DNA of 20,000 bases from an uncultured virus (IMG/VR IMGVR_UViG_3300034106_003629) (lineage: Duplodnaviria > Heunggongvirae > Uroviricota > Caudoviricetes): IMG/VR virus record IMGVR_UViG_3300034106_003629, one strand, 5' to 3'. The notes beneath the pieces were generated by a model that searched no databases, was not told where the DNA came from, and worked only from the letters and a program-made list of their open reading frames with translations. Below are positions 594-6,235 of this stretch, in pieces; positions within the stretch are counted from its first letter, which is position 1; each line of letters starts with the position of its first letter. The translations under genes and the position numbers were made by a program.

Positions 594-1232
594 ATGGAAA
601 AAACCGCTCAAATAAAAAAGCACGAAGGGAATTATTTCTACAAAGCATATAATTTTATGCCAGAAGAATCTCTTCCAGAACTATATTCCTCTGCGGTAAA
701 ATGGTTAGAGAATACTCGAAAGAGTACACTTGAAGAAGTATTTCCCCCAGAAGCATCTCAGAATTTATTGGGTAACGCGATACAAGAATCTTTCCTATCT
801 GAGCAAGTTTGGGTAAATTTTTATTCGGAAGCAAAAAAACATATTGCACAATATTGCAAAGTAACAGGAATCAATATACAAAATATTCGTTTACATTCTT
901 CTTGGATTACTAGACTGCACAATTTAGATTTTCCAAGTGTACACTCAAAAAATGAGTTGGAAAAAAGATTAGGGTTGCATAATACATTTGGAAATATGCA
1001 TTCCCATAAAACCAATCCTATAGGAATGGTTTATTATTTAAAAAACCCAGACCCAAAATATGGAACTATAGTAAAAATAACAAATAAAAAAATATTTAAT
1101 AATAACGGAGAAGAAAATACTATTATGATTTTTGACCCTAGACTATATCATACAGCATTATATCCACCAATTAAAGAAACTGAAGTTTATCCTAGAATTA
1201 CCATTGTAGTTGATTGTGAGTATATTGATTAA
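594..1232 (+). CDS. putative 2OG-Fe(II) oxygenase (2OG-FeII_Oxy_5-like)
   Basis: SWI...NMHSH..NPIGMVYYL...IMIFDPRLYHTA...RITIVVD: HxH, distal His and terminal Arg typical of this DSBH family. Confidence 0.75.
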   Translation: MEKTAQIKKHEGNYFYKAYNFMPEESLPELYSSAVKWLENTRKSTLEEVFPPEASQNLLGNAIQESFLSEQVWVNFYSEAKKHIAQYCKVTGINIQNIRLHSSWITRLHNLDFPSVHSKNELEKRLGLHNTFGNMHSHKTNPIGMVYYLKNPDPKYGTIVKITNKKIFNNNGEENTIMIFDPRLYHTALYPPIKETEVYPRITIVVDCEYID

Positions 1233-1882
1233 GGTAAAACCCAATCAGGAACTCCAAAGGGAATATTAATATACCAATCAAATACAATATTATATTTTAT
1301 AAAATCACTATTAATTAAAAATTTATTTGAACATGGATATGAACCACCATTAAAAATAACCAACGAATTCTGTTCTCCAGGAATAGATTTAATTTTATTT
1401 CCTATTTTTATATCCGTTCCCATATGTACATTATCATTTCTTAGATAATATACAGTTCTTATCATATGTTTTTTAAGCCAGTCGTCATCAACGAGTCCAA
1501 AATCATCCTGAAAAATTGAAGATTCAAAATTAATTACACTAAATATGCTATTTGGTTTTGTTGCTGATCTTTCTCCCCAACAAGAATGGGGAACAATTAA
1601 AGATTCATCAACACCAACAACTTTAAAATATTCCAGTACATGATGTTTTACTCTAAGACAAAATATATTCCAACATCTCTCATCATAGGGAAAATAAGAA
1701 CTTGATGATAATGCCAATCCATGGCAGTCAATAATACATTTTGTTACTTCTATTGCATCTGCATGTAGTAAATTATATTTAAAATGTTTATCAGAACTTA
1801 CTTTTAATTCATTCTGCAAATCATCAGAAAAAACATTTTTAACTACATGTACATAATCAGATTTAATAATATTTTTTTCCAT
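1229..1882 (-). CDS. 2OG-Fe(II) oxygenase-fold paralog of 594..1232 lacking metal-binding His residues
   Basis: Colinear similarity by eye (HSCW/HSSW, VYYLRN/VYYLKN, GTDIKI/GTIVKI, GEQNSLVIF/GEENTIMIF) but no HxH or distal His. Confidence 0.65.
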   Translation of the reverse strand: MEKNIIKSDYVHVVKNVFSDDLQNELKVSSDKHFKYNLLHADAIEVTKCIIDCHGLALSSSSYFPYDERCWNIFCLRVKHHVLEYFKVVGVDESLIVPHSCWGERSATKPNSIFSVINFESSIFQDDFGLVDDDWLKKHMIRTVYYLRNDNVHMGTDIKIGNKIKSIPGEQNSLVIFNGGSYPCSNKFLINSDFIKYNIVFDWYINIPFGVPDWVLP

Positions 1883-2678
1883 AATTTGGAGAATGTAATG
1901 GTGTCTTTTTCGTAAATTTATTTGCCTTTTTAGGGCACATTGTACAAACTGGTTCCGCAGTTCTTGTGAAAAATTCTAGAATATCTATCTCAGAACTAGT
2001 TGGTAACAATGGGTTATACTTTAAATAAGGATCCCATTTTGATGATAGATTATTCCCAAATTTTTTCTTTTGTAGTGGTAAGTAAGCAAGCGCCGCACAT
2101 TTATATATTTTACCATCCAATAATTGAAAGTTTTCTTGTCCTCCTGGACAATTATTCCAACTCTCAATATAATCATCACTGCAAATTGGTTCAATAGAAC
2201 ACCCATATCCAGTATATGTTCTTAACCAATAAGTAGATGCATCATGTATTTTATAATTTACTCCAGATGACTTAATTTTTTGAATCGCAATATCAAATAA
2301 TCTGATGTAATTATGGTCCTGCGAATGTTTAGTTATAGTCAAAATACAATTTGTATCAATCAGTGCTTTTGATAGTCCATCAATTCTATCAAATAGCAAT
2401 CCATTCGATACTAATTCAAATTCTTGGTCATCTTGTATATTCCAAATCTCTTTTGTCATGTAAATAATATCAACGATCTCCTTATTGAGAAGAGGTTCTC
2501 CACCTAACATTGACAATTCTTTTGGATAAATTTTTTTATTCCAACACAAATACCACTCTTTTAGAGTGGTAAGTGAAATATTTTCTTTGTACCCATCATT
2601 AGTATAATGACCACATCCCTCACAAGTAAAATTGCAAGAATGGGTAACATGCCACTCTAAGTGGGGGATTTTAATCAT
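1863..2678 (-). CDS. radical SAM enzyme with C-terminal Cys cluster (SPASM/twitch-like)
   Basis: CNFTCEGC (CxxxCxxC), LGGEPLL, VSNGLL; C-terminal NNC...GKIYKC...CTMCP. Confidence 0.92.
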   Translation of the reverse strand: MIKIPHLEWHVTHSCNFTCEGCGHYTNDGYKENISLTTLKEWYLCWNKKIYPKELSMLGGEPLLNKEIVDIIYMTKEIWNIQDDQEFELVSNGLLFDRIDGLSKALIDTNCILTITKHSQDHNYIRLFDIAIQKIKSSGVNYKIHDASTYWLRTYTGYGCSIEPICSDDYIESWNNCPGGQENFQLLDGKIYKCAALAYLPLQKKKFGNNLSSKWDPYLKYNPLLPTSSEIDILEFFTRTAEPVCTMCPKKANKFTKKTPLHSPNYGKKYY

Positions 2679-3289
2679 TGGGCATCAATACTAGATACAT
2701 CTCTTTCAGGAGAGAAAGTTCTCATTCCAATATTACCAGCATACCACCCAGTTGCAATATACTTATTAACTGGTGTGGGATTACCCCTATGCAGATGAGT
2801 AAAAGATCCAGGCCAAATTGCAACTCTACCTAATTTTGGCTTTACTTTTACCCCCTGATATAAAAATTCAGTTTCTCCACCATCTTCAATATCATTAAAG
2901 TACACTGTCCAAGCAAGAGTTCTTTCTTTTGTTATCCATGTTGTATTTTCTGCATGGAAAGAATGATAACCACCACGCCTTGGTTCCGTTTTTTGAAGAA
3001 GAACTGTACAACTATGGTAACTAAATTGTTTTAAATAAGGGTATGAATCAATATATTGATTCATACAGAAGTCAATTCCTCCCATCAAATAGTTTGCCTC
3101 AGATGGAGAAAATGCACTAAGGCATACTTGCTTATCTGTAACAAAACTATAATTTCTAGAATTAATGAATGAAGTATTATCAATATAATTAATAATAAAA
3201 TCACAGAATTCTTGATCAAATACATTATCCCAAACACCAATAAAGTTATCTAAAACTGAATTAGTTGGTGTAGATTTTTTGTTTTCCAT
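2675..3289 (-). CDS. 2OG-Fe(II) oxygenase (prolyl 4-hydroxylase-like)
   Basis: YHSFHAE, YFNDIEDGGETEF, THLHRGNP, KYIATGW. Start moved to the ATG at 3289 (MENKK), because the longer GTG start lies in the structured RNA. Confidence 0.9.
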   Translation of the reverse strand: MENKKSTPTNSVLDNFIGVWDNVFDQEFCDFIINYIDNTSFINSRNYSFVTDKQVCLSAFSPSEANYLMGGIDFCMNQYIDSYPYLKQFSYHSCTVLLQKTEPRRGGYHSFHAENTTWITKERTLAWTVYFNDIEDGGETEFLYQGVKVKPKLGRVAIWPGSFTHLHRGNPTPVNKYIATGWYAGNIGMRTFSPERDVSSIDAQ

Positions 3290-3304
3290 AAAAACCAAAG
3301 AAGG

Positions 3305-3703
3305 ACGCGCCACCTAGTTTTGACTGAACTAGGAAACAGGCGGGAGAGATTCCCATCCGCACCAGTCGGCATATTTAAAGTCCATCCGACGAGGACATAA
3401 GGGGTCAGATTGACTCCACCACTTAGTTTTAAGAAACTAAGAAAAGTTGGGTTAACTTTGATATTTCGGAGATACCAAAGAATGCACATAAAAACAGCAC
3501 ATCCCAAAGTTTAAGTTTGATAGCAAAAGGAATTGTGAGAAGACCTCCAATAACTTTAATCATCAAACCATATTTAAATTCTCCCCATAACATAGTTTGA
3601 TAACCAATTATAAGAAGAATGTTTCCAATCCACCGAAGTAAATCAGATTTAGACATAAGGGGTTGCTCCCGACCAGGGCACTTTTATAGTCATTCCGAGA
3701 CTA
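3305..3703 (-). ncRNA. manA/wcaG-like cyanophage structured RNA (tandem pseudoknot/hairpin modules), interrupted by ORF 3429..3656
   Basis: GC-rich modules TAGTC/GACTA, CTTAGTTT/AAACTAAG, GTCC/GGAC+GTCGG/CCGAC and CTG/CAG+CCTAGTT/AACTAGG, each followed by TGG, plus GGTGCGGATGGG...CCCGCC. Family assignment is from recollection of cyanophage manA/wcaG motifs, not a search. Confidence 0.55.
3429..3656 (-). CDS. small multi-pass membrane protein (75 aa)
   Basis: ATG start and three hydrophobic segments (WIGNILLIIGY, LMIKVIGGLLTIPFAI, WDVLFLCAFFGI). Confidence 0.7.
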   Translation of the reverse strand: MSKSDLLRWIGNILLIIGYQTMLWGEFKYGLMIKVIGGLLTIPFAIKLKLWDVLFLCAFFGISEISKLTQLFLVS

Positions 3704-3916
3704 GGCAACTTCAATTTGCTCAAGATCTTGAACCAGACAATCAATGAGAATATCATAATCATCTAGAGGATCTCCAGAAAAGACTACACCTTCATTTTCA
3801 TAATAACGACGGACTTTTTTAAAGAGTTTTGGGTTTTTTACATCTAGGTAAAAATCACCGTTTGCAGCACCACGAAGAGTTTGCACATCTTTTTTAAATT
3901 TTTCTGTGAGAGTCAT
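3701..3916 (-). CDS. conserved cyanophage-type hypothetical protein (71 aa)
   Basis: MTLTEKFKKDVQTLRGAANGDFYLDVKNPKLFKKVRRYYENEGVVFSGDPLDDY. Start set at the ATG at 3916, downstream of a promoter; the longer track ORF overlaps a tRNA. Confidence 0.8.
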   Translation of the reverse strand: MTLTEKFKKDVQTLRGAANGDFYLDVKNPKLFKKVRRYYENEGVVFSGDPLDDYDILIDCLVQDLEQIEVA

Positions 3917-3938
3917 TGCTTTGAATGTTGACCTTAAT

Positions 3939-3967
3939 AGTATAAGGGTTTGACAGTTATCTGTCAA
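3939..3967 (-). promoter_or_regulatory. sigma70-type early promoter with palindrome over -35
   Basis: TTGACA-N17-TATACT; TTGACAG-ATAA-CTGTCAA inverted repeat. Confidence 0.75.
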
Positions 3968-3968
3968 G

Positions 3969-4041
3969 TGCTCCTTGCGTGGATCGAACACGCCTCAGGC
4001 GAATTATGAGTTCGCTGCATTCACCAGATTGCTAAAGGAGC
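3969..4041 (-). tRNA. tRNA with CAT anticodon (elongator Met or Ile2)
   Basis: Cloverleaf GCTCCTT/AAGGAGC, anticodon loop CTCATAA, T-loop GTTCGATCC. G1-C72 is paired, so it is not an initiator. Confidence 0.92.
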
Positions 4042-4044
4042 AAG

Positions 4045-4172
4045 TGGGGATAGTCGAACTTCACCCAATTTGGGCAAAGTCCTCGGACCCTGCCCAACCA
4101 TCCCCATACGACGCTACGGAAGATATCCGTAGTAGAAGTTGGCGTCTACTTAGTTAATCGCTAAGGACTACC
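4045..4172 (-). ncRNA. candidate structured RNA(s) between tRNA-Ile and tRNA-CAT
   Basis: TAGTC/GATTA+CTTAG/CTAAG pseudoknot; GACGC/GCGTC enclosing CTACGGA/TCCGTAG; 9-bp TGGGGATGG/CTATCCCCA enclosing a 12-bp hairpin. G-U pairs fit the minus strand. Confidence 0.5.
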
Positions 4173-4174
4173 AA

Positions 4175-4246
4175 TAGGACTGCTGAGAATTGAACTCAGT
4201 TCACACCGTTATAAGCAGTGGGCCTTAACCAATAGGCGACAGTCCC
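4175..4246 (-). tRNA. tRNA-Ile(TAT)
   Basis: GGGACTG/CAGTCCT acceptor, anticodon loop CTTATAA, T-loop GTTCAATTC. Confidence 0.92.
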
Positions 4247-4250
4247 TCGA

Positions 4251-4748
4251 TTAAAAATAGTTAACTATTACAATAGATCTAAAAAAAGAATCCGTGCAAG
4301 TTGTACTACAATGATTTTTACTTGGATCAAAGAATAGTGCTCTATTCTCTATTGATTCTACTTTAGTTCCATCTTCCAAAATAGTAAATCCATTATTAGT
4401 ATTCAAATAAACTATCAATCCAAAATGTTCATATGGATAATCTATATGCATCCCATGCTGGACAATTTTATTTGTTTTTGGATAGACATTTGCTCTTGCT
4501 CTAATAATTGCTTTTGGATTTATTTTTTCAAAGATTGGGTTTAAAGATCCAAAGTATTGACTAGAAATATTGTAGTCTGTATAAAACGTGTGGGTAAAAT
4601 AAATTCCTTCATCATTGTAAGTATTCTTTGTTGATATTCCATGATTTAAAAACCAAGGAATTGTATTATTTCCCACAATTGTTTTTTTAAAATGTTCAAA
4701 AATTGATGGTTCAATAAAGTTATCAATAATTTTTGTTGACTGGTCCAT
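4251..4748 (-). CDS. 2OG-Fe(II) oxygenase family protein
   Basis: HGMHIDY (HxD), YLNTNNGFT, HCSTTCT, RSIVIVNYF; likely start MDQSTK at 4748. Confidence 0.82.
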   Translation of the reverse strand: MDQSTKIIDNFIEPSIFEHFKKTIVGNNTIPWFLNHGISTKNTYNDEGIYFTHTFYTDYNISSQYFGSLNPIFEKINPKAIIRARANVYPKTNKIVQHGMHIDYPYEHFGLIVYLNTNNGFTILEDGTKVESIENRALFFDPSKNHCSTTCTDSFFRSIVIVNYF

Positions 4749-4771
4749 AGTAACAGATGGTCTTATGGTTG

Positions 4772-4969
4772 TCAAGGTGCTTCGTTGTGGTCAGTGTATA
4801 TTCGTATCAATTCTTCATCTGCTGGCATGAGCACTGCTTCACCATACTCACTAGTGATGATAAAAGACTTCATTTCCTTTTCAACCAAATTCATTAAGTT
4901 ATCAAAATCTGCTTGAAACTCTTCCACAGTATACCTCTTTAAACTACCAAGTTCCTTTTCGATACTCAT
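4772..4969 (-). CDS. Phd/YefM-like small protein
   Basis: YTVEEFQADFDNLMNLVE...SFIITSEYGEAVLMP resembles the Phd/YefM N-terminal pattern; start taken at MSIEKE. Confidence 0.55.
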   Translation of the reverse strand: MSIEKELGSLKRYTVEEFQADFDNLMNLVEKEMKSFIITSEYGEAVLMPADEELIRIYTDHNEAP

Positions 4970-5627
4970 CATCAACCTCCGCAGGACAAAGATATTGTAC
5001 TTTATTATTTTTATATGGGATATAATCCCAATTTTCTGGTCTCCAATGAAAGTACATGTTCCTATAATAATCTCCTTGAAATGGAGTATATCTAGAGTGA
5101 ACACATAGACTCTCATATAATAACATGTCACCAGGTTCAAAAACAACCTTGTGTCTAACACCATCATGATCCCAAAAATCTAAAGGCCAATTTGTATTTT
5201 TGGGTTGCTCGTCAATAAAAATTATACAACTAATAATATGAGTTTTTATTTCATCTCGGTGTAAACATAATATTGAGTCTTTTGGATAACTTCTTATTCC
5301 ATAACCCGTGCTATATTTTAATTTTTGATGAGACCATTCTTCCAATATTGGTTGAAGAATATCCGCCCATTCTTTTAATTTTTCTGTGGGAATATGGTTT
5401 ATATGGGTATAAGGATTTTTAATTCTTTTAGGGTCACCTAAAGGATTTCTAAATGCTATCGAACCAGCCGTAATGTGTTCTCCGTATTTAGGATCATAAT
5501 GAGAATTGGTAGAATCTTCTTTTTGTGAGAAGTCGCAAGTATTATAAAAATTCAATATTTCAGAATATAAATTCTCTGGAACCCTGACCAGTTTAAACGG
5601 ATTATCTGCAAAACTTGGCCACTTCAT
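4944..5627 (-). CDS. 2OG-Fe(II) oxygenase family protein
   Basis: GIRSY...LCLHRD (HxD), EPGDMLLYES.CVHSR, YYRNMYFHW; the ATG at 5627 overlaps the upstream TGA (ATGA coupling). Confidence 0.85.
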   Translation of the reverse strand: MKWPSFADNPFKLVRVPENLYSEILNFYNTCDFSQKEDSTNSHYDPKYGEHITAGSIAFRNPLGDPKRIKNPYTHINHIPTEKLKEWADILQPILEEWSHQKLKYSTGYGIRSYPKDSILCLHRDEIKTHIISCIIFIDEQPKNTNWPLDFWDHDGVRHKVVFEPGDMLLYESLCVHSRYTPFQGDYYRNMYFHWRPENWDYIPYKNNKVQYLCPAEVDDEYRKGTW

Positions 5628-6235
5628 TTTAATTTGGGACCATACATCCAAGTAACCAAAGATACTCTTCTTCCTCTTGTTACTGGAGTAACTCTATGAG
5701 GAATTCTTGAATCAAATACAATAACAGATCCTTTTTCTTTTGGTGCCTGTATAATATTGCCATGATAGTCTATGAATTCTAAGTCACCACCATCATATTC
5801 AGAAGGGTCACTAACTAAAACACTTGCACTAAGTTTTCTAGTCCACTTCCCATTTTTTGAAGTTCCATAATCACTATGCCAACCATAGTGTCCATTTTCA
5901 AGATATACTGAGATTTGTATACTTTCAAGTAAATTCAAATCATATTCCCAATACTTTCTATTAGATAAACCAATATAATAAGAAATTACACTACATGCCC
6001 AATGGTCTTCAAACCACCAATTGATTTTAGAATTTCTAATTTTTGGGTCTATCCGACCATTATCCTCACCACCAACACCAGCATCTTCAAATGGAACTTT
6101 AAATTCTTCCATCTCTTTCAATTCTTTGACCATAAGATCTACCAAATCTTCTGGAAGAACTTCTCTATGATAAACTAATGGAGAATCTGCAAGAACATGT
6201 GGTTCTTGACCGTTTATTTTAATACTTTTATCCAT
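5624..6235 (-). CDS. PKHD-type 2OG-Fe(II) oxygenase
   Basis: HYGWHSD, RKLSAS..SDPSEYDGGDLEF, VFDSRIPHRVTPVTRGRRVSLVTW. Confidence 0.93.
   Translation of the reverse strand: MDKSIKINGQEPHVLADSPLVYHREVLPEDLVDLMVKELKEMEEFKVPFEDAGVGGEDNGRIDPKIRNSKINWWFEDHWACSVISYYIGLSNRKYWEYDLNLLESIQISVYLENGHYGWHSDYGTSKNGKWTRKLSASVLVSDPSEYDGGDLEFIDYHGNIIQAPKEKGSVIVFDSRIPHRVTPVTRGRRVSLVTWMYGPKLK

Follow-up and report, generated by a model that had tools for sequence, protein, structure and literature searches.

A Cyanophage wcaG-Type RNA Array That Probably Binds the 3′ Ends of Host tRNAs

The window analyzed here is the whole 20,000-nucleotide stretch of DNA from an uncultured virus (IMG/VR IMGVR_UViG_3300034106_003629); it is AT-rich, has nine tRNA genes, and belongs to a T4-like cyanophage. 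All 69 phage records with a match to positions 3250–3800 are Synechococcus phages or cyanophages. This region is part of a minus-strand operon headed by a candidate sigma-70-type early promoter (3939–3967; TTGACA-17-TATACT, 11 of 12 consensus positions), whose function is predicted from the motif. The promoter-like site is followed by a gene of unknown function (PHROG 552; 3701–3916), RNA module 1, a 75-aa open reading frame (ORF; 3429–3656), and modules 2–4. The operon continues with a 2OG-Fe(II) oxygenase gene directly 3′ of the array (2675–3289), in an allele lacking a terminator, and then a radical SAM gene. At least four 2OG-Fe(II) oxygenase-like genes, the radical SAM gene, and a Phd-like antitoxin gene are clustered around the array (594–6235). 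Between the tRNA-Ile and tRNA-Met genes, a minus-strand element (4045–4105) has a tRNA-like GGGGATG/TATCCCC-A acceptor stem and GTTCGA T-loop; it was called by neither ARAGORN nor Rfam and might be either a decayed tRNA or a mimic of one. Contigs of relatives from four RNA runs cover 3294–4049, although contigs carry no strand, ends, or level and thus are no proof of transcription.

Direct reading of the sequence confirmed the original prediction of four minus-strand modules, each followed by TGG, with stems where they had been placed. Module 1 (3676–3703), whose first three nucleotides are the TAG stop of the PHROG 552 gene, contains the predicted stem (stem 1, AGTC/GACT) but is also a pseudoknot, here termed class I. 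Its further pairs are G3696-C3676, G3695-C3677, and A3694-T3680, with a tertiary C3697-G3679 pair, and its UGG lies at 3675–3673, after a 3′ strand that the prediction had omitted. Module 2 (3422–3444), which overlaps the last codons and TAA of the ORF, has the predicted stem as stem 2 of a class II knot; the correction is that the first stem is missing in the window copy. Module 3 (3365–3396) is a class III H-type pseudoknot (GTCC/GGAC and GTCGG/CCGAC), and module 4 (3313–3339) is a class II H-type pseudoknot (CTG/CAG and CCTAGTT/AACTAGG). A knot-plus-UGG detector found exactly these four modules in the 20-kb window, versus 0–2 each (five in total) in 15 Markov controls. Each module consists of a covarying pseudoknot followed directly by UGG and eight bases, which together form an 11-mer tail. 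In the order of modules 1–4, the tails are C (UGGUCGGGAGC, 3665–3675), A (UGGUGGAGUCA, 3411–3421), B (UGGUGCGGAUG, 3354–3364), and E (UGGCGCGUCCU, 3302–3312), the last being a variant of tail D. Homologs display three knot designs, and knots and tails join freely at the UGG, which is invariant; position 4 of the tail is U or C.

Stems required by the detector (stem 1 of classes I and III, stem 2 of classes II and III) have pair percentages that are high by construction, and the evidence within them comes only from both-sided changes and from unselected pairs. For the module 1 type, two detector-unselected pairs were 100% Watson–Crick in 54 distinct homologs (CG 37/UA 17 and GC 26/AU 25/UA 3), and it is because of these pairs, with their many double changes, that we assign module 1 as a pseudoknot. 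Among 35 homologs of the module 2 type, analyzed for stem 2 only, 99.6% of positions were paired, with double changes at four of seven pairs. The corresponding values were 95% and three pairs for the module 3 type (12 homologs) and 99.8% and nine of ten pairs for the module 4 type (44 homologs, stem 1 unselected), whose members exceed the window copy by 2 nt; the window copy itself stands outside their alignment. A shuffle control can be beaten by related sequences without structure; slid controls dropped to 17–57% paired. An additional knot type (TCTTT..CAATAGAC..CTAGA, then TGG) is located 5′ of the tail A module in marine-type phages (loci L358, L370, L415, L437, L438, and L460). Its tails, such as UGGUUUUAGGCGCG or UGGUGUUUGGCUGG, have no evident tRNA match.

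Modules 3 and 4 match Rfam wcaG (RF01761; 3299–3398) with 60.8 bits against a gathering threshold of 42, and a second, weak wcaG match of 23.2 bits covers module 2. The original prediction had named a manA/wcaG-like RNA that was modular rather than a simple riboswitch. The wcaG-type modular assignment was borne out by the covariance-model match above gathering and by the compensatory changes in homologous knots. The manA assignment was rejected: RF01745 gave no match at E ≤ 10 in 3250–3800 and was absent from 12 related loci, nine of them natural ORF-less alleles, while wcaG scored in all 12; manA was detected in S-CREM1 (96.6 bits), which served as the positive control. The wcaG family model spans two of the four units, and Rfam wcaG in all likelihood represents the 3′ half of a phage array of four RNA units. 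No wcaG match was found in phage B3. With the pattern used, a species-genome scan returned no cellular copies; its five matches were four misbinned cyanophage-like contigs and one chance match. Cyanophage-like contigs with wcaG arrays (L452, L454, L455, and L456) are binned into metagenome-assembled genomes of unrelated bacteria and an archaeon. As a sequence family, wcaG was catalogued in 2010 but without an assigned function. The alignment published then already holds all knot classes, including the module-3-type knot, together with tails A–D and tandem matches, and it marks the pseudoknot of the second knot (PMC2864571). The wcaG passages of that paper and parts of its alignment mention no tRNA complementarity, nor was any report of it in wcaG found among CC-licensed PubMed Central papers or in bioRxiv.

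The likeliest explanation of the modules, which the original prediction missed and which is new here, lies in the tails. Judged by sequence, the 11-mers represent, in reverse complement, the 3′ ends of mature tRNAs, with acceptor strand, discriminator, and CCA. UGG complements CCA, the base at position 4 faces an A or G discriminator, and positions 5–11 correspond to the acceptor 3′ strand. By this register, tail A is assigned to tRNA-Ala, tail B to tRNA-Leu, and tail C to tRNA-Pro, and tails D and E fit a G73 tRNA, probably Arg. The window copy of tail B is an exact complement, and tail C matches at nine of 11 positions here and at 11 of 11 in its UGGUCGGGAUG variant. To identify isotypes, the complement of each tail 8-mer was sought behind a T-loop motif. 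Leu accounted for 77 of 87 tRNA calls with tail B (123 matches), Ala for 27 of 30 with tail A (40 matches), and Arg for 38 of 48 with tail D (125 matches). A degenerate metagenome scan with four equal variants gave 108 tRNA calls in 125 matches. The two real tails supplied 101 of these calls (tail C variant, 52, all Pro; tail B, 49, of which 48 were Leu) and the two non-tail variants seven. A marine variant of tail D, with CATGCACG as its target, gave one tRNA call in 53 matches. The isotypes of tails A, B, and C were also supported by a catalogue of 786 tRNAs, mostly from phages, that had not been fetched by tail patterns. Within this catalogue, the A and D tails that occur most often had matches of no more than five and four of eight bases, respectively, and exact 8/8 matches were obtained for eight of 48 distinct tails versus six of 354 controls.

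Candidate host targets, namely picocyanobacterial Leu(CAG) and Pro(CGG), could be traced for tails B and C, respectively. Synechococcaceae and Pseudanabaena contigs, named via their proteins, carry a tRNA-Pro(CGG) ending in CATCCCGA. The attP of phage S-TIP37, stated in its report to match a host tRNA-Leu perfectly (PMC8776855), begins with GCGGATG, identical to tail B positions 5–11, and has a CAG anticodon; the 3′ strand of host Leu(CAG) was deduced from the 5′ strand in this attP. A different Leu is represented by the P-SSP7 attP, which is not compatible with tail B. Hosts have about 45 tRNAs, and on that number one exact 8-base match would arise by chance with a frequency of about 7 in 10,000 by simple arithmetic.

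Across 54 arrays anchored on tail B, conservation of the unselected tails A and D extends through position 11, where the acceptor stem ends, and then falls to 67% and 56%. Tail C is conserved to position 9, with 42–46% at positions 10–11. The tail A region (3401–3421) folds into a hairpin whose 3′ arm, TGACCCC (3401–3407), complements the Ala 5′ strand GGGGTCA. An A·C mismatch occupies the position of G3·U70 in tRNA-Ala, and therefore each arm complements one tRNA-Ala strand. Such a double strand exchange fits tail A only; the 3′ arms of tails B and C pair at 5–6 of 7 positions, tail B forming a weak local hairpin (3340–3364). Cognate duplexes were calculated at −17.1 (Pro), −19.1 (Ala), and −19.8 (Leu) kcal/mol, compared with −11.2 kcal/mol at best for non-cognate pairs; the duplex of tail E in the window is weak (−11.6 kcal/mol). 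The tRNAs encoded by the phages themselves pair fully with only one of 24 same-phage tails in six phages.

The arrays obey a one-of-each rule. In the 54 arrays, which were selected through tail B and not through tails A, C, or D, 46 hold exactly one each of A–D and none repeats a tail. A larger, anchor-biased set agrees, as 103 of 123 arrays with at least three modules comprise exactly A, B, C, and D, and three repeat a tail. In the tail-B-anchored set, all four units are kept in 27 of 35 arrays that lack the ORF. Of 173 arrays, 124 have a terminator 3′ of their last module, and in 106 the terminator contains a promoter-like site. In S-PM2, S-CREM1, S-RIM8, and five of 54 loci, the array ends on a tRNA gene. 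A short hairpin and a tRNA-Gly gene, rather than a protein gene, lie 3′ of the array in L451 (S-PM2), L136, L160, L177, L181, and L183. The genes downstream of arrays encode sugar enzymes, oxygenases, or tRNAs.

These array ends fit poorly with a 5′ riboswitch. In 2010, wcaG was proposed to be a 5′ cis-regulator and listed as a probable riboswitch (PMC2864571). A small-molecule riboswitch for sugar or exopolysaccharide genes, as suggested at that time, would be in keeping with the NAD-dependent epimerase that lies downstream in 55 of 109 distinct cases. We consider this reading highly improbable, as three knot designs that swap freely with tails leave no single conserved pocket, a terminator–promoter or tRNA separates the RNA from the gene, and the next gene in the window encodes a 2OG oxygenase. 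Alternatively, the units could bind tRNA ends yet act in cis as T-box-like switches on translation of the adjacent gene or on terminator read-through, with uncharged tRNA masking or opening a tail hairpin. The terminators that follow most arrays are consistent with such a role, as is a Shine–Dalgarno-like GGGAG located inside the tail C hairpin, 9 nt 5′ of the ORF ATG. Because 20 of 22 ORF-containing alleles have the UGGUCGGGAGC variant, tail C seems, from sequence comparison, to have been co-opted as a ribosome-binding site in these alleles. Cis switching is nonetheless unlikely in our estimation. Most ORF-less arrays keep their four units, there is no fixed pairing of tail B types with terminator stems, the terminator often contains a promoter-like site, some arrays are closed by a tRNA gene, and a specifier loop is absent. 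We also considered an antiterminator in which tail B pairs with the terminator that follows the array and rejected it for lack of covariation.

The 75-aa ORF is situated between modules 1 and 2, as the original prediction had it. It encodes a three-helix membrane-type protein (PHROG 2318/DUF6552-like) with no Pfam match and no PDB match at E ≤ 0.001; a single-sequence structure model has three helices and a pLDDT of 74.7. The ORF is an optional passenger, being present in 19 of 54 distinct tail-B-anchored arrays. When tail C was used as the anchor, 76 of 88 module-bearing loci ran into the ORF, nine into another module, and two into another gene, and one was cut (120 loci were fetched, of which 32 were dropped as chance non-modules). 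A loose tail C scan gave mostly chance matches, with 38 of 119 in an AT-rich context. Anchoring on tail A placed the ORF upstream in 44 of 120 loci. The gene also occurs without module 1 in ACG-2014f and without any module in B3, S-CREM1, and SynMITS9220M01. A DUF6552-like gene is present, unannotated, in the GenBank records of S-SRM01 (L001, 2893–3117) and ACG-2014f (L449, 1501–1725). In some relatives, a 187-aa ORF with no Pfam match interrupts tail A (L034, 1783–2343; L036; L274); we take its start to be GIY-YIG-like.

The original prediction explained the locus as a modular cassette for gene capture, with a 12-bp direct repeat as boundary, or for coupling translation termination to reinitiation. 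Part of this stands. Genes do come and go between modules, as illustrated by two clean ORF-less alleles (L272 and L282) and by eight clusters of proteins (98 in total) encoded between modules. In 183 of 283 cases, the stop codon of a gene lies within the knot that comes next, and in another 82 it precedes that knot by no more than 10 nt. A single RNA-library contig connects 3396 with 3659, with a side of 20 nt. Modules are located where genes end, and the genes lying between them are exchanged. The repeat fares worse. Both copies of ACCCCTTATGTC are where they were predicted, at 3652–3663 (the end of tail C and start of the ORF) and 3394–3405 (the end of tail A and start of a mini-ORF), but they do not flank the ORF, as the second copy is on the far side of module 2. 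Of 86 distinct ORF-containing alleles, one has the exact 12-mer twice, namely the window's own, and no repeat is found at the empty junction of L272 or L282. By comparison, 12-mers recurring within 300 bp were counted at a rate of 1.4 per 20 kb across 40 Markov controls. We therefore rejected the repeat as a target-site duplication or insertion boundary; chance and tail paralogy suffice to account for it. Comparison across orthologous loci thus upholds an optional ORF and not a conserved repeat.

Coupling to reinitiation met a similar fate. The mini-ORF (MSSSDGL*) is present at 3375–3398, and a second ATG occurs in 41 of 86 ORF-containing alleles, but MSSSDGL occurs in one of 86; the mini-ORF is incidental. 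The stops of the upstream gene, the 75-aa gene, and the mini-ORF do fall inside modules as described, yet this placement is not required: the stop is inside the knot in 84 of 93 cases for module 2 and in 46 of 128 for module 1. Separately, canonical wcaG is spanned by a 31–32-codon ORF in 28 of 41 second-ATG alleles (L014 and relatives); this ORF ends at the TGA of tail D and is probably incidental. It was rejected as a peptide gene, as its residues follow stem covariation and its frame is broken in other alleles. The cassette explanation also leaves the four distinct tails and their tRNA match unaccounted for, and the gene is found without modules. We give it almost no credence; as a primary function it is largely refuted, with recombination at tails retained as a side effect. 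Genes such as the 75-aa ORF would then be passengers shuffled through recombination at the repeated tails. A related behavior is described for PeSLs of T4-like phages, which shuffle promoters and terminators and in which repeated elements act as recombination points (PMC4122927). The array shares with them short repeated elements for gene gain and loss, and a terminator–promoter ends most arrays. PeSLs are DNA-level regulatory motifs, whereas the array units are covarying RNA pseudoknots.

Structure, modularity with free combination of parts, complementarity, and the one-of-each rule are directly supported. From these, we infer that the four-unit RNA probably binds the ends of host tRNAs for Pro, Ala, and Leu and of a G73 tRNA, probably Arg. 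Each unit would consist of a small pseudoknot, in any of three interchangeable designs, joined without a spacer to UGGY and a further 5–7 bases that oppose tRNA positions 76–66. The free CCA end of a tRNA would pair with UGG as a toehold, and the new helix would stack on stem 2 of the knot, much as the UGGN helix of a T-box stacks on helix A1. Pairing could then spread into the acceptor stem and displace the unit's own weak tail hairpin, although opening an already folded stem in this way may be slow unless assisted. The likely ligand is uncharged tRNA, given that A76 would lie directly against the knot, and the units would accordingly sense charge. Since the three designs are interchangeable, the knot most likely serves as a stacking platform and a steric gate for uncharged tRNA rather than as a catalytic core.

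The placement of the knot against A76 would also suit a ribozyme acting on the bound tRNA end, by deacylation, cleavage, or charging, or a site for tRNA-primed synthesis. Primer-binding sites of retroelements start with UGG and complement 8–18 nt of a host tRNA 3′ end, and the 8–11 nt of complementarity opening with UGG take the same form. A primer-binding site is single and needs a reverse transcriptase; the array has four sites fused to pseudoknots within a dsDNA phage operon, and no reverse transcriptase was found among ten neighboring proteins scanned on a 27-kb fragment. Three unrelated, interchangeable knot designs argue for a structural role, and catalysis or priming is in our view very unlikely.

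The predicted binding of tRNA ends by the units has its nearest parallel in the T-box, in which UGGN is fixed next to helix A1 for stacking of the tRNA end (PMC7583486). In both, a UGGN-type complement of tRNA NCCA lies beside a helix and position 4 reads the discriminator. The T-box pairs 4 nt and uses the specifier loop of Stem I, whereas the array would pair 8–11 nt, has no Stem I, and chains four units for four tRNAs in a lytic phage; T-box Rfam families gave no match in the window at E ≤ 5. Type III toxin–antitoxin RNAs offer a different parallel, as their tandem H-type pseudoknots precede an intrinsic terminator. The array could accordingly be a decoy for an RNA-binding defense toxin that imitates type III antitoxin repeats (pseudo-ToxI). 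Its tandem pseudoknots and terminator resemble toxI, cptI, and tenpI layouts (PMC5086642, PMC12283969), and the Phd-like antitoxin gene is nearby. The array has no toxin gene after it, its units are not near-identical, and their tails are distinct. No ToxN, CptN, or TenpN family member was present among 35 representative neighbors (27 downstream, eight internal), no cellular copy emerged from the species-genome scan, and a decoy leaves the anti-tRNA tails unexplained, making this proposal extremely improbable. The lack of a T-box or manA family match in the window and of a type III toxin among the neighbors sets the array apart from those systems as a phage RNA with predicted extended complementarity to several host tRNA acceptor ends.

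As to purpose, codon usage differs sharply between phage and host. Per 1000 codons, the window (19 genes, 4096 codons) and two host genes (886 codons) use CUG at 5.4 versus 79, CCG at 0.2 versus 21, GCC at 2.2 versus 60, and CGG at 0.5 versus 34. An early transcript could sequester host tRNAs for G/C-ending codons that the AT-rich phage hardly uses, which would tilt translation toward phage mRNA or damp the stringent response. The retention of four units in arrays that lack the ORF or are flanked by a tRNA leads us to prefer sequestration to cis switching, and we advance sequestration as the leading, though tentative, account of what the array is for. In its full form, the proposal, which we hold with similar reserve, is a programmable anti-tRNA RNA. 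Chained antisense units, each with a pseudoknot cap, may capture four host tRNAs (Leu CAG, Pro CGG, Ala, and Arg) by their 3′ ends and thereby stop host translation or the stringent response, and phage tRNAs with altered acceptor stems would escape.

Together, these findings give an orphan riboswitch candidate a specific predicted ligand that is cheap to test. They are relevant to the presence of tRNA genes in AT-rich cyanophages whose hosts are GC-rich, and they suggest how nature may target individual tRNAs through the acceptor stem. If the proposal is true, the array would be an RNA-only device for host takeover, one that would explain both the orphan riboswitch candidate and the phages' own tRNAs.
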